Assembly: GCA_002773135.1 (NCBI GenBank)
Contig: PFCB01000022.1
Span: 7,591 to 71,590, forward strand
Direction of reading: 5' to 3'
Length of the DNA: 64,000 nt
DNA from: Candidatus Magasanikbacteria bacterium CG10_big_fil_rev_8_21_14_0_10_47_10
Lineage (GTDB): Bacteria; Patescibacteriota; Patescibacteriia; Magasanikbacterales; UBA922
In this document: positions 16,640-58,737 of the stretch, one piece after another
How the letters are laid out: each line of letters begins with the position of its first letter
Position numbering within the stretch: the first letter of the stretch is position 1
Made by a program: the position numbers and the translations under genes
Notes under the pieces: model-generated
Database searches by the model: none
Told to the model about the DNA's origin: nothing
The model's input: only the letters and a program-made list of their open reading frames with translations

Positions 16640-16891
16640 CTACGTGTGGTCGTTAAAGCCGTCGAGCGGGTCCTCGTCACGTCGCAGTGCGATTCGCGCC
16701 ATGTGCTCACAGGCGACGCCCAGTGCTACGCAGAGGAGCACGACTGCGGTAAAGAACCAGTTGACGGCGATGTTCGTCACATAGGCGTACCAGGCGAGGT
16801 ACATCGCGCCACCCAACAGCCCGAAGGCCACCAGGTAGAGCACAGTCGCTGCCGCGATCTGTGAGGGTCGCAGCCCTTTGTGCTTGTCCAT
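16640..16891 (-). CDS. GC-rich small two-TM membrane protein (hypothetical)
   Basis: 83 aa (MDKHKGLRPSQIAAATVLYLVAFGLLGGAMYLAWYAYVTNIAVNWFFTAVVLLCVALGVA...). Strong SD (GGAGA with a 4-nt spacer). Very high GC3. Confidence 0.55.
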   Translation of the reverse strand: MDKHKGLRPSQIAAATVLYLVAFGLLGGAMYLAWYAYVTNIAVNWFFTAVVLLCVALGVACEHMARIALRRDEDPLDGFNDHT

Positions 16892-28761: not shown

Positions 28762-30171
28762 TTATTGGCCCAACAAGCGCAGGACAACATTGAATGTTCG
28801 AAGAATAATTGAAATATCAAGAAGGAACGATCTGTTTTTGATGTAATACAGATCATACTGAAGCTTTACGAGCGATGCCTCTTTGCTGTCAGCGTAATTT
28901 TGGTGAAGAACAGCCCAGCCACTCAACCCGGGTTTGATCACGTGTCGAAGCGGATAATATGGCATCTCTTCTGTTAACTCGTTTACAAGGTCGGGCCTTT
29001 CCGGCCGAGGCCCGATAAGTGTAATATCCCTGCGCAGTAAATTGAGCACTTGCGGCAGTTCATCTATCCGCATTTTTCTTAAAAAGTTACCGACTGGGGT
29101 TATGCGCTCATCATCCTTGCGCGTAAATTCATACCCGCCAATTTCAGCACTTCCATCCTGCGTGAGGGCGTACATCGAACGAAATTTGTACAGCATAAAT
29201 GTTTCCCCACCCTTGCCAACTCTTTTTTGACTGTAAAAAAGCGGACCTCTTGATGTTAATTTAATAGCCAAAGCGACAAAAGGAAGCAACAGGAGCAGGA
29301 TAACTCCCAAAATAAGTGCCGCCGCATAGTCCATAAGCGATTTCCATCGCTCATAGACAGGAGAGTCCGCGTGCCGCAGATGATCAAGAAACCAAGATTC
29401 GGAAAACGTGGATGGCGGTATACGGCCTGTCAGTCGTTCATAAAAAGCGGGTAAATGAATGAGCTGAACCGGCCAAAAAAGAAGCTCATACAGTTCTCGC
29501 ATGGTTTCTTCATCTCCATGCAAATGACCCGCAATAACAACCATGTCAACACGCTTGTTGGAGATAATTGGACGGAGGGTCTTGATTGCGTGGTAAATGT
29601 CCGTCTGCATGCCCACCTTTTCGTGGGGTGGCAATTTTTTTTCCGGATCAACAAGAGCGCATACTCTGTACCCCTTACTCATGTCTCCCTCAATCAGTGT
29701 CACCAGCTCGCTCACATCTTCCGAATATCCGACAAAGACGACGTTTGTCTGCAATTTTGAGATGCCCAGGAGACGTTCCGCCCCAATACGCCACGCGTAG
29801 AGAAGCGCGTAGCCAATGACGACATTGAACAGAAGAATCGTCTTCGGTGTAATTCCACGGGATGGAATGATATAAAAGAAGACAACACCAACTACCAGCG
29901 ACATCAGGGCTGTGGAGAAAATGCGGCGATCAAAAGCAATTTTATTTGAGCGAAATCGAAGATCATACAAACCGTTAATGTAGTTTACCAGGATCCACAT
30001 CAGGTAAGTAATCGCAAATAGCTTCACGTGCCGCACCGTTACGTCTCCGCTTGGGTACGTCTGGTGACGAAGAACCTGCGCAATAAAAAAACTGGCGACG
30101 AACATGGTCAGGTCACCAACAATCAGCATGAGTTGTTTCAATCGATAGACGACAGTCATATCATTGCCCAC
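28762..30171 (-). CDS. undecaprenyl-phosphate sugar phosphotransferase (WbaP/bacterial sugar transferase family)
   Basis: Multi-TM N-terminus with a C-terminal sugar-transferase domain (YSQKRVGKGGETFMLYKFRSMY...DELPQ). Alternative start at ATG 30159. Confidence 0.85.
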   Translation of the reverse strand: MGNDMTVVYRLKQLMLIVGDLTMFVASFFIAQVLRHQTYPSGDVTVRHVKLFAITYLMWILVNYINGLYDLRFRSNKIAFDRRIFSTALMSLVVGVVFFYIIPSRGITPKTILLFNVVIGYALLYAWRIGAERLLGISKLQTNVVFVGYSEDVSELVTLIEGDMSKGYRVCALVDPEKKLPPHEKVGMQTDIYHAIKTLRPIISNKRVDMVVIAGHLHGDEETMRELYELLFWPVQLIHLPAFYERLTGRIPPSTFSESWFLDHLRHADSPVYERWKSLMDYAAALILGVILLLLLPFVALAIKLTSRGPLFYSQKRVGKGGETFMLYKFRSMYALTQDGSAEIGGYEFTRKDDERITPVGNFLRKMRIDELPQVLNLLRRDITLIGPRPERPDLVNELTEEMPYYPLRHVIKPGLSGWAVLHQNYADSKEASLVKLQYDLYYIKNRSFLLDISIILRTFNVVLRLLGQ

Positions 30172-38966: not shown

Positions 38967-39947
38967 TTATTGCGTTATTTGTGCCCCGTCCGACAGACTC
39001 CGGATAAAGGCACCGCTGAGCACACGGACCGCACTCCATGTCCACCCATGCGACAGAAAAACCGCTTCATTGATAATATGGCGCTTTACGCCACCAATTG
39101 AGAGTGAATACACCTTTGGATCAGACGGAGACTTTATAACGCTACCGACAGGGAGGCGCTGCTCGTTTATTGTCGGCAGATACCCATTGGCAACTTCATA
39201 CCCATCGGTAAATCCATCTCCATCACTATCCGCAAGCCACAGTATAGTACCAAAATCAATTTCCTGCTGCTTGGTGAGACCATCTTCATCCGCATCACTG
39301 CTCGCGGTATCAAGCAGTTCTCTACGAGTGAAAATAGCTCGTGGCGACCCGTTCGCTGTATCGCCCGGAACATAGTCGTGCATCGCGTTCATGATAGTAT
39401 CATATGAATAGTGATAGTCAAGACCATATCGGGTACCCGGCTCCTGAGCAATAAATGTTTGGGACGTATCGTCATAACCCGATATAACGACTGTGTGATA
39501 CACAGGACCGGACGCACGGAAGTGAGGATTATAAAGCGCTCGGCCATAGACAGGTACAATGACCGGATGCCCTGTATCTATTTCACGCTTGATTTGATCC
39601 AAAGAAGGACTGTCTACCACATATGCCTCCCATGGATAGTAGGCGTTAATAATATCACTTATTTTTTGCGCGTTTTCATCAAGACTGGAGCCAAATTTGG
39701 CATTTTTAATATTGAAAACATTCAGCAGCCTTTTTTCGCTTGAATCAACAGAGAGCATTTGGCCGGCGTAGTAGGCGTCAATCATAACAATTGTGGCCTC
39801 TTCACATGCATCCTGCCAAGGCTGTGTCCACGCACCCCGTGGCGCCTGTGAGGTAAAGGGGACTGGCAGTGTTGCCGCACTGACCGGTACCCAAAGAGCC
39901 AGCAGCACAACGGTCAATCCAATATACGACAGGCGGTTAACGGTCAT
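38967..39947 (-). CDS. secreted C39-like cysteine peptidase domain protein with TSP3-like Ca-binding repeats
   Basis: Signal peptide; a peptidase_C39-like region (HPVIVPVYG...YHTVVISGYDD); DADEDG...DSDGDGFTDGYE repeats. Strong SD (GGAGGA). ATGA overlap with dnaX. Confidence 0.5.
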   Translation of the reverse strand: MTVNRLSYIGLTVVLLALWVPVSAATLPVPFTSQAPRGAWTQPWQDACEEATIVMIDAYYAGQMLSVDSSEKRLLNVFNIKNAKFGSSLDENAQKISDIINAYYPWEAYVVDSPSLDQIKREIDTGHPVIVPVYGRALYNPHFRASGPVYHTVVISGYDDTSQTFIAQEPGTRYGLDYHYSYDTIMNAMHDYVPGDTANGSPRAIFTRRELLDTASSDADEDGLTKQQEIDFGTILWLADSDGDGFTDGYEVANGYLPTINEQRLPVGSVIKSPSDPKVYSLSIGGVKRHIINEAVFLSHGWTWSAVRVLSGAFIRSLSDGAQITQ

Positions 39948-41500
39948 AGGACTTCTCCTCCAAAAGCAGCGGCAAGATGGGTGATCTCATTGATGCGCTC
40001 AACCTCCCGCTCCGACTTTTCAACAACAAAATCAAGCTCAATACCAGGGGTGCCCAAGGAGTCGGAAAAGCTTTCCTGTAGTTGTTTTTTACACCTTTTG
40101 TCAGCAAGGCGGTCTCTGTGAAATTCAGACAACACGGCGACGGTAATACTCGTATTATTCACCTGCTCCACTCGGCAACTTTTGAGGATATAGACAAGTG
40201 AGGGTGATTCCTTTTCAATGGCTAGAATTGCGGCATCAAATGCTTTGCGGACATCCGCCTCCGAGAAGGAAGAGATAGAATGCCCGGTATTTTTTTGATC
40301 GAGAATGGTTGGGTGTGGTGATGAGGCTTTTGCTCCAGTTGGTCGCGGCTCAACGGCCTCTATCGGCGGTTTGCGGTGAAGCATTTCTTCGCCCTGATTT
40401 TCTTTTTCATTGCGTGCTTCTTGGGAGTCACACCACTCTATGACTAACAATTCAAGCGGTAGCTGGGCGAGGGGAGCGGTGCCCACCTGTCCACGGCGGG
40501 AGCTTAACATATCCGCAAGGCGCACAAGTTCTATTGGAGAAACAGATCCTTGCGTAGACTCGATCCAATCAATAGTACGCGGGTCATGTTCCGACGATAT
40601 ATTTTTTTGGTAGGCGTATATCAAGAGCGTCCGCAGCATAGTAATAGCCTCATCACAAAAAATTGCGATATCTATACCCTCTGTGCTTACGCGCTGTATC
40701 AACGATAGGCATGCTGCCGCATTTTTTTGAAACAGAGACTGCAACAGGGCGGTTACCTCCTCGGACGTGGATGGCGGAAGAACCATTGAAACGCTTTCGT
40801 CGGTTACCGCGCCGCCGGCCGCGGCAATCAGTTGCTCAAGAAGACTCACTGCATCGCGAACACACCCCTCACTCTTGCCGGCAACTCGCTTTAATACGGA
40901 ATCATCAACCGCCACATTTTCCGCCTTGGCAATGCCCCGCAGCGTATCTATAATTGTGGCCTCACTGACACGACTAAATGCAAAGCGTTGGCAGCGAGAT
41001 TGTATGGTTTGAGGAAGCTTATGCAATTCTGTTGTGGCCAATATAAATAGTACATGACCCGGTGGCTCCTCCAATATTTTTAAAAGGGCGTTAAAAGCAC
41101 TGAGCGATAGCATGTGAACCTCGTCAATGATAAACACTTTGTATCTGGAGGTCGCCGGCTTAAATTTTGCGTTATCAATAATGTTTTCACGAACATTATC
41201 AACTCCCGTATGGCTTGCCGCGTCAATCTCAATCACATCAATCGACATGCCTGCGTTTATTTCATTGCAACTGACACAGTTGTTGCATGGGTTAGCCTCA
41301 GTATCATTTTTATTCACGCAGTTAACCGCCTTGGCAAGAACTCTGGCCGTGGTCGTTTTGCCAATACCTCTTGGTCCGGAAAAAAGATACGCGTGTGCCG
41401 GATGTCCACCGATGACTTGATTCTGTATCGTATGGATAATGTGATGTTGACCAATAATGCTATCAAAGGTTTGCGGCCGGTGTGTATGATAGAGTGCCAT
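39944..41500 (-). CDS. dnaX: DNA polymerase III subunit gamma/tau
   Basis: AAA+ clamp-loader motifs (GPRGIGKTTTARVLAKAVNC, a Zn-module CxxC, SRC). Start at ATG 41500 (MALYHTHRPQTFD...). Confidence 0.85.
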   Translation of the reverse strand: MALYHTHRPQTFDSIIGQHHIIHTIQNQVIGGHPAHAYLFSGPRGIGKTTTARVLAKAVNCVNKNDTEANPCNNCVSCNEINAGMSIDVIEIDAASHTGVDNVRENIIDNAKFKPATSRYKVFIIDEVHMLSLSAFNALLKILEEPPGHVLFILATTELHKLPQTIQSRCQRFAFSRVSEATIIDTLRGIAKAENVAVDDSVLKRVAGKSEGCVRDAVSLLEQLIAAAGGAVTDESVSMVLPPSTSEEVTALLQSLFQKNAAACLSLIQRVSTEGIDIAIFCDEAITMLRTLLIYAYQKNISSEHDPRTIDWIESTQGSVSPIELVRLADMLSSRRGQVGTAPLAQLPLELLVIEWCDSQEARNEKENQGEEMLHRKPPIEAVEPRPTGAKASSPHPTILDQKNTGHSISSFSEADVRKAFDAAILAIEKESPSLVYILKSCRVEQVNNTSITVAVLSEFHRDRLADKRCKKQLQESFSDSLGTPGIELDFVVEKSEREVERINEITHLAAAFGGEVL

Positions 41501-41675
41501 AGTGAGAAGAGAGGCCACTGATTGGCCCGACGAAGTAATGCTGAACAGATGCCTAGTATAGCGCACTGCTGTGCCCCAGTAAACCGTTAGTATGGAGTGG
41601 TATTGCCAACAGTACACATATATGCTATACTGTGGATAACTTATTCAAGGCGTATTTAGTCACTAACACATAGCT

Positions 41676-53247: not shown

Positions 53248-54210
53248 ATGGCAGTCTCCTCTAAAGCAATTAAGACCCGCATCAAGTCGGTCAAAAACAC
53301 TAAAAAAATTACCAAGGCAATGGAGCTTGTTTCGGCTGCAAAAATGAGAAAGGCCGTTGATGCGACACTGCAGGCGCGTTTGTACGCGACACTGGCGCAG
53401 CAGCTAATGGAACGTCTTTCAGAGCTGCAAGAGCCCAACTACCCGCTGTTTGAGCAGCGACCGGTCAAAAAGATTCTCATGATATTGATCAGCTCGAATA
53501 GGGGACTGTGCGGCAGTTTTAATGGGAATGTCATGAAGTTCGGCAAAAGGCTTTTGGAAGACAAAAAAAATCTTGCCGCTCACAGAGGTCCGGACGGACA
53601 AAGCACGCCTCCCGGTGCCGGCGATATTGACGTTGAAGTACTGGGAATTGGGCGCAAGAGCGCCGCATTTGCCAAAAAGAACGACCTCGAGCTTATTGAA
53701 GTGTACGATTCTCTTGGCGATAGTCCGGACATTGATGACGCAATTCATATCAGCAAGAACGTGACGGAAAAATTTAAAACAGGTACATACGATAAGGTAG
53801 TGGTGCTCTTTACACACTTTGCCTCCAGTCTTACGCAGACTGTCAAAGTTCGGCAGCTGTTGCCGGTCGCAAAGGCAGAGGTGGACAAATTGCTGACTGA
53901 ATTTCCGAATAAAGATCACATTGGTGAACTCGCGCCGGACAATAGGCCAATTGAAACCTATTTTCTGGAGCCGAGCAGGGACGCGATTTTTGACATTGTT
54001 ATACCCAGGCTGATCGACGTCCAAGTGTATCAGGCCCTTCTTGAATCGGCCGCGAGCGAACACAGCGCGAGGATGGTGGCCATGAAGAACGCGAGCGAGG
54101 CGGCAAGCGAGATGATTGATGCGCTGACACTGGCATTTAATAAGGCCCGTCAGGCCGCGATTACGCAAGAGATTGCGGAAATTGCAGGCGGTGCGGCGGC
54201 ATTAGAATAA
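53248..54210 (+). CDS. atpG: F0F1 ATP synthase subunit gamma
   Basis: N-terminus (IKTRIKSVKNTKKITKAMELVSAAKMRKA) and C-terminal helix typical of gamma. Confidence 0.9.
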   Translation: MAVSSKAIKTRIKSVKNTKKITKAMELVSAAKMRKAVDATLQARLYATLAQQLMERLSELQEPNYPLFEQRPVKKILMILISSNRGLCGSFNGNVMKFGKRLLEDKKNLAAHRGPDGQSTPPGAGDIDVEVLGIGRKSAAFAKKNDLELIEVYDSLGDSPDIDDAIHISKNVTEKFKTGTYDKVVVLFTHFASSLTQTVKVRQLLPVAKAEVDKLLTEFPNKDHIGELAPDNRPIETYFLEPSRDAIFDIVIPRLIDVQVYQALLESAASEHSARMVAMKNASEAASEMIDALTLAFNKARQAAITQEIAEIAGGAAALE

Positions 54211-54219
54211 TATTATTGA

Positions 54220-55617
<1,398 letters not shown>

Positions 55618-55658: not shown

Positions 55659-56306
55659 ATGAAAAAAATTTCTCTTTTATTCGCAATTTTCATAACCATT
55701 GGCGCCGGATGCGCAGCAACCACGCCCCCGCAAGTGCAAGGCAAAGCTGCTGACGAGCAACCGGCTGTAACCCAACAGAAACCTATGAAACGAACACGCG
55801 ACGGGCAAGAGGATCTTGCACAGCAATATGGCAAGGCAATACTGCATACCACAAAGGGCGATATTTCAGTGCAATTTTACGCCGACGAATCTCCAGTCAC
55901 GGTGAACAATTTCATGCATCTTGCGCAGGAAGGATTTTATGACGGGACAGCCTTTCACCGGGTGATAAAGGATTTCATGATCCAGGGTGGTGATCCGCTG
56001 AGCCGCGACAAAGAGTCCGGGCAGCTTCCCGGTTCCGGAGGTCCGGGATATGCATTTGAGGATGAATTCAATAACCACAGGCTTGTGCGCGGCTCCCTGG
56101 CAATGGCTAACGCAGGACCGAATACGAACGGCTCTCAATTTTTTATCGTGACAGCCGCTGAAACGCCTTGGCTGGATCGCCGTCACACCAATTTTGGAGA
56201 AGTTATCGCCGGCATGAATGTGGTGGACAGTATTGAAAATACAGCTGTTGACAGCAATGATAATCCCACCGACCCAATCGTGATTACATCAGTTGAACTG
56301 CAGTAA
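55659..56306 (+). CDS. cyclophilin-type peptidyl-prolyl cis-trans isomerase, lipoprotein form
   Basis: Lipobox (IGAGC) and a cyclophilin core (FHRVIKDFMIQGGDP...GSLAMANAGPNTNGSQFFI). Confidence 0.85.
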   Translation: MKKISLLFAIFITIGAGCAATTPPQVQGKAADEQPAVTQQKPMKRTRDGQEDLAQQYGKAILHTTKGDISVQFYADESPVTVNNFMHLAQEGFYDGTAFHRVIKDFMIQGGDPLSRDKESGQLPGSGGPGYAFEDEFNNHRLVRGSLAMANAGPNTNGSQFFIVTAAETPWLDRRHTNFGEVIAGMNVVDSIENTAVDSNDNPTDPIVITSVELQ

Positions 56307-56307
56307 T

Positions 56308-56721
56308 ATGGAATTTAAGGTAGTAACCCCCCATGGGGTGACATATAATGACACCATTGAAAAAGTAACCGTCCCAACACTGGCCGGCGCTCTTACAATA
56401 CTCGATCAGCACGCGCCGATTGTATCTGTGCTGGCCGCCGGCGAAATGGTCATACATAGGATGGACGGTTCAACAGTGGATGTCGCCGTCTCAGGCGGTA
56501 TTATGGAGATCGTCTCAAGTGGCGCAGTGTACATAATGGCCGACACGGCGGAGCGAGCCGAGGAAATTGACATTTCTCGTGCCGAGGCGGCAAAAAAGCG
56601 AGCCGAGGAACTGCTTACGCAACAAAAGAATATAGCCGATGTTGACTTCGCTCGAATTCAGGCATCCATTGAAAAGGAATTGGCCCGCATCAGTATCGGA
56701 AAAAAGTATCGTAAACTGTAG
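56308..56721 (+). CDS. atpC: F0F1 ATP synthase subunit epsilon
   Basis: Beta-sandwich N-domain (FKVVTPHGVTYNDTIEKVTVPTLAGALTILDQHAPIV) and a C-terminal helix. ATG 56308 follows the cyclophilin stop by 1 nt. Confidence 0.85.
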   Translation: MEFKVVTPHGVTYNDTIEKVTVPTLAGALTILDQHAPIVSVLAAGEMVIHRMDGSTVDVAVSGGIMEIVSSGAVYIMADTAERAEEIDISRAEAAKKRAEELLTQQKNIADVDFARIQASIEKELARISIGKKYRKL

Positions 56722-56740
56722 GTAACAACATTATCCACAT

Positions 56741-56767
56741 AAAGCCCGCGTCGGGCTTTTTTTTTTT
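56741..56767 (+). terminator. intrinsic terminator ending the atp operon
   Basis: aaagcccg-cgt-cgggcttt followed by a T10 run. Confidence 0.65.
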
Positions 56768-56829
56768 ACGCAAAACTGTGTATGATATAGATATCACTTA
56801 ACAACGCGTACTATAATCTATCATATCTA

Positions 56830-56916
56830 TGGACTGCGAACATTGTGGCGCACCAATGGACGACGGCCCTTGCATGGATTGCACCGGCTGCAACGACTGC
56901 TGCACCTGCAAGTAGA
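56830..56916 (+). CDS. putative 28-aa cysteine-rich peptide
   Basis: MDCEHCGAPMDDGPCMDCTGCNDCCTCK (9 Cys in 28 aa). GC3-rich codons. TATAAT at 56812-56817 and a terminator hairpin directly downstream. No obvious SD. Confidence 0.35.
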
Positions 56917-56920
56917 TGAA

Positions 56921-56948
56921 AAACACGAGACGATCCTCGTGTTTTTTG
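56921..56948 (+). terminator. terminator/attenuator hairpin between the Cys-rich peptide ORF and the ABC exporter
   Basis: cacgag-acgatc-ctcgtg with a flanking A4 run and a T6 run. Confidence 0.5.
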
Positions 56949-56979
56949 ATATACTGATCGCACGATATGAGCCTGTCAT

Positions 56980-58737
56980 ATGAAGCGTCACACAAAGCGA
57001 ACTCTTCAAATATACTGGGAAAGCCTGAAGGGCAAACGCGTCCTTTCTTTTTTTGTTATTCTTGGTATCGTGGCGTCATCGATATTCAATCTCGCGCCGC
57101 CATTGCTCTACAAGGAATTTTTTAACACATTGCTGGCACCCAGGGACGCGCAGACCACGCATGCTCTTGTTCAAATTATCGGATTTGTCTTTATCGTGCA
57201 CTTCATTGGATGGTTTTTTTGGCGGTTGACATCGTTTATCAAGGCACGCATTCAGATTCGCGTGCTTGGCAGACTCTTTGATCGGGTATTTAACTCTATT
57301 CACCATCACTCTGTCGGTTTTTTTAATAATACATTTGTCGGGTCACTCGTAAAGCGCGTGAATAGATTTGTATTCGCGTTCAACGAACTCACGGACACTT
57401 TCTTGTATGACTTGCTGGGAACCGGTGTTGAAATAGTGATCATAACCACTGTCCTCTTTTTTCAAAGTCCGGTATTGGGATGGATTATCCTGGGATGGTC
57501 TGTCGTCTTTATTTTCTTTAACTATTTATTTACAGTTTACAAACTTAAATTTGACATTGAGCAGTCTGCCTTGGATTCTCGGACAACCGGGCACATCGCT
57601 GATACGGTTACCAATCAAATTAATCTGAAGTTTTTCGCCTCTCTCCAATCAGAGGCAACCCTTTTTAAAAAAATACATGGTGAGCAGCTTGCAAAACGGC
57701 TTTTTCGGTGGAATCTGGAGTATACCTATGAGGCATTCCAGACATTGCTGATGATCATGCTTGAGTTTGCCATGTTTTATTACGCGATCCGGCTATGGCA
57801 GGAAGGACAAATACAGGTCGGGGACTTTGTCCTTATACAGGCGTACCTGATAACATTATTTAACCGCCTTTGGGGATTTGCGCGCGTGATCCGGAGAATC
57901 TATGAGCAGCTCGCAGACGCGGAAGAGATGACGGAAATATTGGAAACACCGCGCGAGATAAAAGATCTCAAGCGGGCCAAGGATCTTATGGTAAAAAAAG
58001 GCGCGGTGGTCTTTCGGAATGTGAATTTTTTTTACAACAAAACCCGTCCCGTACTGAAAAATTTTTCTCTTTCTCTTAAACCGGGTGAACGAGTCGCACT
58101 GGTCGGTCCGTCCGGCGCCGGGAAAAGTACTATTATCAAGCTACTCTTGCGTTTTAGTGACATTGCTCAGGGCAGCATTATCATTGACAAGCAGGATATT
58201 CGCAAGGTAACACAAGACAGTCTCCATCGCGCCATGAGTGTTGTTCCGCAGGATCCCATTCTTTTTCACCGGTCGCTTATGGACAATATTCGGTATGGGA
58301 AGCCAGGTGCGACTGATGATGAGGTGATTGAGGCGTCAAAAGCGGCGCATTGCCACGAGTTCATTGATGAATTGCCGGAACAATATGGCACCTATGTGGG
58401 TGAGCGCGGAGTAAAGCTGTCAGGAGGTGAGCGTCAACGTGTGGCTATTGCGCGCGCAATATTAAAGAACGCGCCAATTTTGGTGCTTGATGAAGCAACG
58501 TCCAGTCTGGACTCTGAGTCAGAGTTTTACATTCAGGAAGCACTGGATGTACTTATGAAAGAAAAAACAGTCATTGTGATTGCGCATCGACTATCAACCA
58601 TTATGCGCATGGACCGAATCATCCTCCTGGAAAATGGGATGATCGCGGAGCAGGGCACGCACACACAACTCCTGTCTCAACACAAAGGACGATACAGACG
58701 ATTATGGGAGCTTCAGGCCGGCGGCTTTATTACCTAG
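56980..58737 (+). CDS. ABC transporter, fused permease/ATP-binding protein (MsbA/exporter type)
   Basis: Six-TM domain followed by an NBD with Walker A GPSGAGKST, signature [14 protein letters not shown] and Walker B LVLDEATSSLD. Confidence 0.9.
   Translation: MKRHTKRTLQIYWESLKGKRVLSFFVILGIVASSIFNLAPPLLYKEFFNTLLAPRDAQTTHALVQIIGFVFIVHFIGWFFWRLTSFIKARIQIRVLGRLFDRVFNSIHHHSVGFFNNTFVGSLVKRVNRFVFAFNELTDTFLYDLLGTGVEIVIITTVLFFQSPVLGWIILGWSVVFIFFNYLFTVYKLKFDIEQSALDSRTTGHIADTVTNQINLKFFASLQSEATLFKKIHGEQLAKRLFRWNLEYTYEAFQTLLMIMLEFAMFYYAIRLWQEGQIQVGDFVLIQAYLITLFNRLWGFARVIRRIYEQLADAEEMTEILETPREIKDLKRAKDLMVKKGAVVFRNVNFFYNKTRPVLKNFSLSLKPGERVALVGPSGAGKSTIIKLLLRFSDIAQGSIIIDKQDIRKVTQDSLHRAMSVVPQDPILFHRSLMDNIRYGKPGATDDEVIEASKAAHCHEFIDELPEQYGTYVGERGVKLSGGERQRVAIARAILKNAPILVLDEATSSLDSESEFYIQEALDVLMKEKTVIVIAHRLSTIMRMDRIILLENGMIAEQGTHTQLLSQHKGRYRRLWELQAGGFIT

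Follow-up and report, generated by a model that had tools for sequence, protein, structure and literature searches.

CxxC-G turns are characteristic of zinc-finger micro-proteins and of DnaJ-type CxxCxGxG zinc knuckles. By definition, metallothioneins sequester metals, are rich in Cys, and have a low molecular weight (PMC7387436). In ferredoxins, the cluster is bound by the heptapeptide C-x-G-C-x2-C (PMC3320576), and short synthetic peptides with this sequence assemble [4Fe-4S] clusters (PMC10946529). Cys-rich short open reading frames (sORFs) can also be regulatory: mycobacterial polycysteine sORFs precede cysteine-metabolism operons and use consecutive Cys codons together with an RNA duplex that hides the downstream ribosome-binding site (Canestrari et al., bioRxiv 10.1101/834739). 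In class II bacteriocin and C39-ABC export modules, a small peptide gene adjoins the gene of an ABCB-type exporter. A Cys-rich sORF with likenesses to each of these systems is found at positions 56829..56915 (+) of the DNA analyzed here, a 64,000-nucleotide stretch (the window) of contig PFCB01000022.1 from Candidatus Magasanikbacteria bacterium CG10_big_fil_rev_8_21_14_0_10_47_10. As judged from its sequence and that of its relatives, the sORF product would on balance be a mini-protein of the cytoplasm with a metal-thiolate center, which either buffers or donates metal or is active in redox reactions. The class of small Cys-rich metal-binding proteins is already known; the eight-Cys family to which this peptide is assigned, its scaffold, and its distribution over Candidate Phyla Radiation (CPR) and archaeal-type contigs have no description in the databases and literature that were searched.

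The sORF extends from an ATG to a TAG codon and encodes the 28-residue peptide MDCEHCGAPMDDGPCMDCTGCNDCCTCK. The peptide contains eight Cys (29%), one fewer than the nine counted in the original prediction, and a single His, lacks Phe, Trp, and Tyr, and is net acidic. With its small size, a Cys content of about 30%, CxxC, CxC, and CC motifs, and no aromatic residues, it has the composition by which metallothioneins are operationally recognized. The Cys domain begins as early as residue 3. No second ORF of this kind is present within the 64-kb window. The sORF is located in a 258-nt gap between atpC, the last gene of the ATP synthase operon, and a gene for an ATP-binding cassette (ABC) transporter. 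Across this gap, the DNA is 100% identical in three other assemblies, which confirms the sequence but carries no evolutionary information.

Evolutionary information comes from more distant loci. Neighborhoods were taken around the closest orthologs of the ABC protein, which are just 54 to 58% identical to it, and further loci were retrieved by profile and DNA pattern searches. The Cys spacing of the window peptide is shared by at least ten other loci, carried by four other Magasanikbacteria-type contigs and by several 29%-GC contigs, some of which bear archaeal-type genes. Together, these sequences form an unannotated but conserved mini-protein family with the scaffold C-x2-C-x4-9-C-x2-C-x-G-C-x2-C-x-T-C(-x-C), to which a variable acidic C-terminal tail is optionally added. 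The closest analog of the window peptide is a 48-aa member from locus L236 (CSECGAVLLEDEVCPRCNRCGDCCGC). Its product consists of MEDELIFCSECGAVLLEDEVCPRCNRCGDCCGCYD and an acidic tail and represents the subtype of the window peptide, in which CxxCGA and a long spacer are followed by CxxCxxCxDCCxC. Two further members are encoded 5′ of the ABC gene, with 59 aa in L084 (MEELKTCASCSGPACMECGGCSACSTCSCGSGEMS...) and 26 aa in L087 (MGRCSECDSPICTTCGGCDECGTCDC), and the 41-aa member of L214 again has an acidic tail. The remaining sORFs encode 29 aa (L217/L220, MEEKCPSCGGPTCEKCGGCKKCGTCTCKD), 34 aa (L221), 28 aa (L224), 32 aa (L226), and 35 aa (L227/L228). Profile searches contributed P0123 with 35 aa, P0125, in which the motif is tandemly duplicated, and P0126, in which the motif and a helical tail add up to 87 aa. 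In the family members, two to seven residues precede the first Cys.

The pattern of conservation points to the peptide as the selected unit. The invariant positions of the family alignment (A3) are M1, seven Cys, and one each of Pro, Gly, and Thr. Five core columns are 100% Cys across 11 members, with TGC and TGT mixed in each of them; in the same 11 members, the conserved Gly is encoded by GGA, GGC, or GGG and the conserved Thr by ACA, ACT, ACC, or ACG, while the positions between the Cys take up to eight different residues. Because the Cys are fixed with mixed synonymous codons while the intervening residues vary, purifying selection appears to act on the peptide scaffold and not on the RNA or on the number of Cys codons. 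The net charge changes from acidic in the window peptide to Lys-rich in the 29%-GC members. Such a charge flip, with the scaffold alone retained, is as expected for folding that is driven by metal. The original prediction had been made to hang on conservation of the ORF in at least one relative; the peptide is conserved.

These data also bear on the possibility that the sORF is a chance ORF or a non-coding element between two terminators. Eight or more Cys per 28-aa stretch were reached in 13 of 300 Markov-2 simulated windows (4%, P of approximately 0.04), so that the Cys count alone could arise by chance, and the ORF is shorter than the limits of gene callers and absent from protein databases. 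The spacing C..C.{3,9}C..C..C..C..C, however, occurred in 0 of the 300 simulated windows, and amino-acid conservation with synonymous changes is maintained in host genomes of 29% to 50% GC. The low-GC members additionally have a strong canonical Shine–Dalgarno (SD) sequence (GGAGGT) at the correct spacing, and an Rfam scan of the region returned no match. The conservation data largely refute a chance origin, which is to be regarded as extremely improbable.

Five of the family members are of the Magasanikbacteria type and show atp-operon synteny. The contigs of 29% GC have an archaeal look, and we infer that they derive from DPANN lineages. The tyrosyl-tRNA synthetase (TyrRS) encoded in L226 is of the archaeal/eukaryal type, with the human cytoplasmic and archaeal enzymes as best PDB matches; a thioredoxin reductase (TrxR)-like protein from L227 is closest to Sulfolobus TrxB-3, and L224 encodes a DUF7343/MarR-type regulator. 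The atpC-to-ABC interval of Magasanikbacteria is, moreover, a hot spot of other Cys-rich mini-genes with differing patterns. At L236:4541-4853 (+), a 47-aa protein with 12 Cys (MNCQKCDIELTEETKCCDGSACCKGCCDCKEETKEEKSCGDGDCHCS) is encoded 22 nt 5′ of the 48-aa family member and co-transcribed with it; both are annotated merely as “hypothetical protein” (MFH1947176.1, MFH1947175.1). At L087:1686-1850 (+), a second ORF encodes 54 aa with four Cys in the pattern CxxCx4CxC and an Ala/Pro/Asp-rich tail.

In protein databases, the family is nearly invisible. The window peptide is not present in a collection of 15 billion proteins, and the few longer relatives that are deposited carry the label “hypothetical.” A word-indexed protein search with the 59-aa relative returned only the query itself, and a search with the family profile returned only three proteins. 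Of the proteins found by an exhaustive HMMER search of 1.84 billion representatives, five are true members, and the repeat protein P0124 is spurious. No family match for the window peptide was obtained in Pfam (E ≤ 0.01), NCBIfam, or PDB. Known metallothionein families were matched neither by eight members in Pfam at E ≤ 10 nor by the window peptide in NCBIfam, and zinc-ribbon and DnaJ_CXXCXGXG models gave no match either. At the DNA level, the final degenerate pattern gave 13 matches over metagenome contigs, six of them true members; this pattern is blind to the subtype of the window, which has P-C in place of P-x-C and lacks the final x-C. Two other patterns were discarded. For the first (five Cys, Gly, and Thr), the matches listed were low-complexity noise from viral contigs and phage proteins with CQxCQx repeats, and the three matches obtained after P-x had been added were all noise. 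tblastn against phage and plasmid collections gave no match, and literature searches on metallothioneins or Cys-rich small proteins in Patescibacteria or archaea retrieved nothing relevant. The noise of the DNA pattern scan came from viral contigs of IMG/VR (L102, L115, L130, L147, L171, L178) and from L093, L182, and L209. Long (C-Q-x)n repeat proteins such as NCCQANCCQTCQGCQSCQTCQGCQKCQ recur in these viral contigs, which also encode very large proteins of 38 to 87 Cys with a CxxCxxC periodicity.

The proposed function starts from a dedicated transcription unit. The sORF mRNA would be transcribed from its own promoter, be leaderless or nearly so, and end at its own terminator. The peptide would then fold solely around a metal-thiolate center, either as two Zn(Cys)4 sites or as a metallothionein-like Zn/Cu(I) cluster, with a [4Fe-4S] cluster bound by its ferredoxin-like stretch C-x-G-C-x2-C as a less likely alternative. 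In its folded state, it would buffer or donate metal inside the cell, or be a small protein active in thiol redox chemistry. We infer metal binding from the composition and the Cys spacing of the peptide, and in this form the earlier view that metal binding is its most economical reading is supported; conservation of the scaffold only is likewise what metal-dependent folding would leave.

Metallothioneins (SmtA/BmtA, the Pseudomonas metallothioneins, and mycobacterial MymT) are the closest comparison. They share with the family the very small size, a Cys content of about 29%, the absence of aromatic residues, the CxxC, CxC, and CC motifs, the conservation of the Cys scaffold alone while other residues drift, and, as predicted for the family, a cytoplasmic product of a stand-alone gene. 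Unlike them, the family matches no metallothionein model in Pfam or NCBIfam, and it differs from SmtA-type proteins in the i, i+3 periodicity of five Cys (C-x2-C-x2-C-x2-C-x2-C) and in the invariant Gly, Pro, and Thr. The CxxC-G turns are shared with zinc-finger micro-proteins and DnaJ-type knuckles, and the eight Cys could form two Zn(Cys)4 sites. The Cys are, however, far denser than in these proteins (eight within 22 to 27 residues), and no corresponding model is matched.

The transcriptional layout of the locus is consistent with an independent gene. The ATP synthase operon ends with atpG (53248-54210, +), atpD (54226-55617, +), a cyclophilin gene (55659-56306, +), and atpC (56293-56721, +). 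It is followed by an intrinsic terminator at 56741..56759 (+), an 8-bp stem with five GC pairs and a T-run, which shields the sORF from upstream transcription. A promoter-like site with TAGATA, an 18-nt spacer, and TATAAT was found at 56788..56817 (+), matching at 10 of 12 positions in a promoter scan. The TATAAT box, already pointed out in the original prediction, occupies 56812-56817 and ends 11 nt 5′ of the ATG, so that the 5′ leader would be very short or absent and devoid of an SD sequence. SD-like motifs were detected at only three of 36 gene starts in the window, and TATAAT-like boxes are located 5 to 20 nt 5′ of many of its starts (before 2552, 16996, 28762-30171 (−), and 39944-41617 (−)). 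The scarcity of SD motifs and the −10-like boxes near starts suggest that leaderless or short-leader mRNAs are widespread in this Magasanikbacterium, and the short-leader layout of the sORF would thus be normal for its genome.

The −35 region is overlapped by a perfect palindrome, TGATAT-AG-ATATCA (56783..56796), as a candidate operator. It is the sole exact copy in the window, and matches with up to two mismatches are not enriched (seven observed, 3.4 expected). The palindrome is reminiscent of the 7-1-7 boxes of Fur-family regulators (Fur/Zur/PerR). GATA-type repeats related to it flank the −10 box (56819-56830).

An intrinsic terminator at 56919..56947 (+) begins as close as 4 nt past the stop codon. 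Its 11-bp stem, which includes A-U pairs, is formed by the arms AAAAACACGAG (56919-56929) and CTCGTGTTTTT (56936-46) around a 6-nt loop, and a T6 run occupies 56942-56947. The hairpin and T6 had been noted before; the structure is present in both the minimum free energy and centroid folds, at −14.7 kcal/mol. The view of the sORF as a genuine gene for a small Cys-rich peptide, equipped with a promoter-like box and a terminator of its own, is thereby borne out.

The same features could also indicate a Cys-sensing leader peptide, in which ribosome stalling at the Cys codons modulates terminator read-through into the ABC gene. The leaderless-like layout, the eight Cys codons with one CC pair, and the terminator 4 nt past the stop codon would suit such a device, and in mycobacteria leaderless sORFs with at least two consecutive Cys codons attenuate downstream genes (bioRxiv 10.1101/834739). 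Like these, the sORF is an unannotated, leaderless-like, and Cys-rich short ORF 5′ of another gene. The required alternative RNA pairing is missing, however: no antiterminator partner exists for the terminator's 5′ arm, which stays unpaired when the 3′ arm is removed. An attenuator needs its regulatory codons only, whereas here the Cys spacing and the non-Cys residues Pro, Gly, and Thr are conserved across 8 to 11 members. In L084, L214, and L236, the Cys block is followed by tails of 15 to 30 residues, which leave a long distance between the Cys codons and any terminator. The downstream genes vary between loci, and the ABC gene lacks a demonstrated link to cysteine. The suggestion that the hairpin acts as an attenuator is accordingly not upheld, and a leader peptide is considered decidedly improbable.

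The ABC gene itself (56980..58737, +) encodes an ABCB-type half-transporter of 585 aa, a fusion of transmembrane and nucleotide-binding domains. It had been placed 30 nt after the hairpin; it does lie directly downstream, with an actual distance of 32 nt from the T-run and 64 nt from the stop codon. A TATACT −10-like box, read directly from the sequence and lacking a good −35 element, is located between the terminator and the ABC start (56950-56955, +; 24 nt 5′ of the start), which makes a separate promoter of the ABC gene probable. The only Pfam domains of the protein are PF00664 (residues 24-296) and PF00005 (residues 359-508). In NCBIfam, it stays under every ABC equivalog cutoff, with MsbA_lipidA (TIGR02203) as best model at 368.6 bits compared with a cutoff of 602. 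The best half-transporter match in PDB is an Atm1-type exporter (4mrn, E = 2e-93), followed by ABCB6 and Sav1866. These assignments mark it as a generic ABCB half-transporter. The protein is identical to an NCBI entry from Candidatus Magasanikbacteria bacterium CG10_big_fil_rev..., which places the window in the CPR/Patescibacteria. More than 8000 homologs were found at E < 1e-30, the top 120 being 51 to 58% identical, and those with a named host come from several CPR lineages including Magasanik-, Buchanan-, Komeili-, and Peregrinibacteria. The gene belongs to a widespread orthologous group and to the core genes of the CPR.

The original prediction had centered on a peptide with a dedicated exporter, that is, on an adjacent ABC transporter that secretes a Cys-rich antimicrobial or extracellular metal-binding peptide. 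The gene arrangement agrees with this in part. The sORF and the ABC gene share their orientation in the window, L084, L087, and L236. In the first three, the sORF is just 5′ of the ABC gene; in L236, the distance is within 1.1 kb, and one other gene lies between the sORFs and the ABC gene. Other members are found near other transporter genes (MATE, TauE, TctA). The components of a class II bacteriocin or C39-ABC export module are absent, though. A C39 peptidase or accessory domain was not detected on the ABC protein in the Pfam scan, in agreement with the previous inspection by eye, and the peptide has neither a leader nor a double-glycine motif. The terminator and the separate −10 box divide the two genes, and the unconserved net charge of the peptide is atypical for antimicrobial peptides.

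The two genes are also not inherited together. In L090, atpC and the ABC gene are kept without the Cys ORF, and L232 and L234 likewise lack an sORF. Upstream of distant CPR orthologs of the ABC gene, no sORF was seen among the matches listed (mostly Proteobacteria). Conversely, L214, L224, L227, L217, and L226 contain the sORF but no ABC gene. In L214, atpC and the sORF are followed by a GATase gene and DUF5671, and the low-GC members adjoin a TrxR-like gene, HAD/MATE genes, or TctA/TauE/TyrRS genes, so that no neighbor gene is obligatory across the loci. As sORF and ABC gene dissociate in both directions, conserved gene order is the best explanation for their being neighbors in the window. 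The ABC gene would form a separate housekeeping transcription unit that shares its neighborhood with the sORF solely through the order atpC ... ABC ... UvrD conserved in Magasanikbacteria. An exported peptide module is thus judged improbable, and the reading as a peptide with a dedicated exporter can be dropped, so that the locus is not wrongly annotated as a bacteriocin or secretion module.

The precursor of a ribosomally synthesized and post-translationally modified peptide (RiPP), either ranthipeptide/SCIFF-like or of the MNIO-/methanobactin-like Cys-modified type, could similarly be small and very Cys-rich, and the C-terminal extension of some members could be a follower peptide. Its maturase would have to be encoded elsewhere: genes for radical-SAM enzymes, MNIO, cyclodehydratases, or other maturases are absent from the approximately ten neighborhoods examined, which extends the earlier remark that no maturation enzyme is nearby. 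NCBIfam gave no match, the SCIFF model included, and a Cys domain that starts at residues 3 to 8 leaves no room for a leader. A RiPP precursor is accordingly very improbable.

In the low-GC loci, there are hints of thiol or redox chemistry. The sORF is located 32 nt (L224) and 4 nt (L227/L228) 5′ of a TrxR-like gene (L224:1910-2962 (−), L227:204-1266 (+), and L228:148-1210 (+)), and this proximity fits a thiol or metal-thiolate function. The TrxR-like proteins score 274 to 307 bits against TIGR01292, under the cutoff of 343. Those of L224 and L227 are 66% identical and have a CALC active site and an unusual C-terminal extension, CSCVDEN(C). At the position presumed to correspond to the NADPH motif HRR of E. 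coli TrxB, “ARH” was read by eye; the donor specificity of the enzyme may be non-canonical. The family might represent a natural minimal redox cofactor protein of ultra-small prokaryotes (CPR bacteria and DPANN-like archaea), with a [4Fe-4S] cluster or thiol/disulfide chemistry, that serves the TrxR-like enzyme of L224 and L227. In such a case, the cluster could be held on the ferredoxin-like C-x-G-C-x2-C-x-T-C of a 26- to 35-residue peptide, and the peptide could be an electron donor or substrate of the TrxR-like flavoenzyme.

The core C-x-G-C-x2-C is indeed shared with [4Fe-4S] ferredoxins and maquette peptides, and the database echoes go only to Fer4 and PsaC segments. All of these echoes are sub-threshold: Fer4_22 reached E = 0.006 in one of eight members, and PsaC (E ≥ 0.079) and [2Fe-2S] ferredoxin matches, at E = 0.056 to 0.2, remained below threshold. 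The spacing CxxCxxCxxC of the family deviates from the Fer4 motif CxxCxxCxxxCP in that the fourth ligand is spaced by x2 instead of x3 and no Pro follows, and the 26- to 35-residue peptides do not have the alpha+beta fold of ferredoxins. A redox cofactor protein of this kind is considered unlikely, although it would, if true, be a living “proto-ferredoxin” as small as the designed maquettes.

Several observations weigh against the favored metal-thiolate mini-protein. Atm1-type exporters, which give the best half-transporter match of the ABC protein in PDB, export metal-thiol compounds, and in four of five Magasanikbacteria-type loci the sORF precedes the ABC gene in the same orientation; a functional link between the two keeps some residual probability. 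No known metallothionein or zinc-finger family is matched, so that the case for metal binding is made from composition and spacing, and translation of the peptide, like its metal binding, is predicted. The AlphaFold model, calculated from a four-sequence alignment, has a pLDDT of 57 and is too poor to judge the fold. Finally, the sORF has a high GC content at third codon positions (GC3), as had been noticed before: its value is 0.75, whereas 46 long ORFs of the window average 0.48. The idea of a foreign mini-gene that was derived from this value is unproven; only the window copy is GC3-rich, and the other members match their own genomes.

Other GC-rich segments occur elsewhere in the window. 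An 83-aa predicted membrane mini-protein with a GC3 of 0.80, possibly one of the GC3-rich mini-genes of the original prediction, is encoded at 16640-16891 (−) in a 790-nt intergenic gap. The segment 63379-64000 is compositionally distinct (GC 0.57 compared with the window mean of 0.47) and includes an ORF from 63508 with a GC3 of 0.83. The cyclophilin-type peptidyl-prolyl isomerase gene between atpD and atpC, with a lipoprotein-like N-terminus, is found in the window (55659-56306, +) and in L090:2558-3223, and a 239-aa ORF, known from its reading frame alone, takes the atpD-atpC position in L214:6277-6996. Downstream of the ABC gene, the window encodes a DUF5671 membrane protein, a 179-aa ORF of unassigned family, a flavin mononucleotide reductase, and a UvrD/PD-(D/E)XK helicase-nuclease.

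Gene callers skip ORFs as short as this sORF, and a strictly conserved microprotein family with eight Cys nevertheless exists in CPR bacteria and on low-GC archaeal-type contigs. As a very small natural scaffold that is accessible to chemical synthesis, the peptide lends itself to metal-cluster studies. Should the peptide bind metal, these reduced-genome organisms, about whose metal and redox homeostasis next to nothing is known, would have in it their first described protein of the metallothionein-like or minimal Fe-S type.

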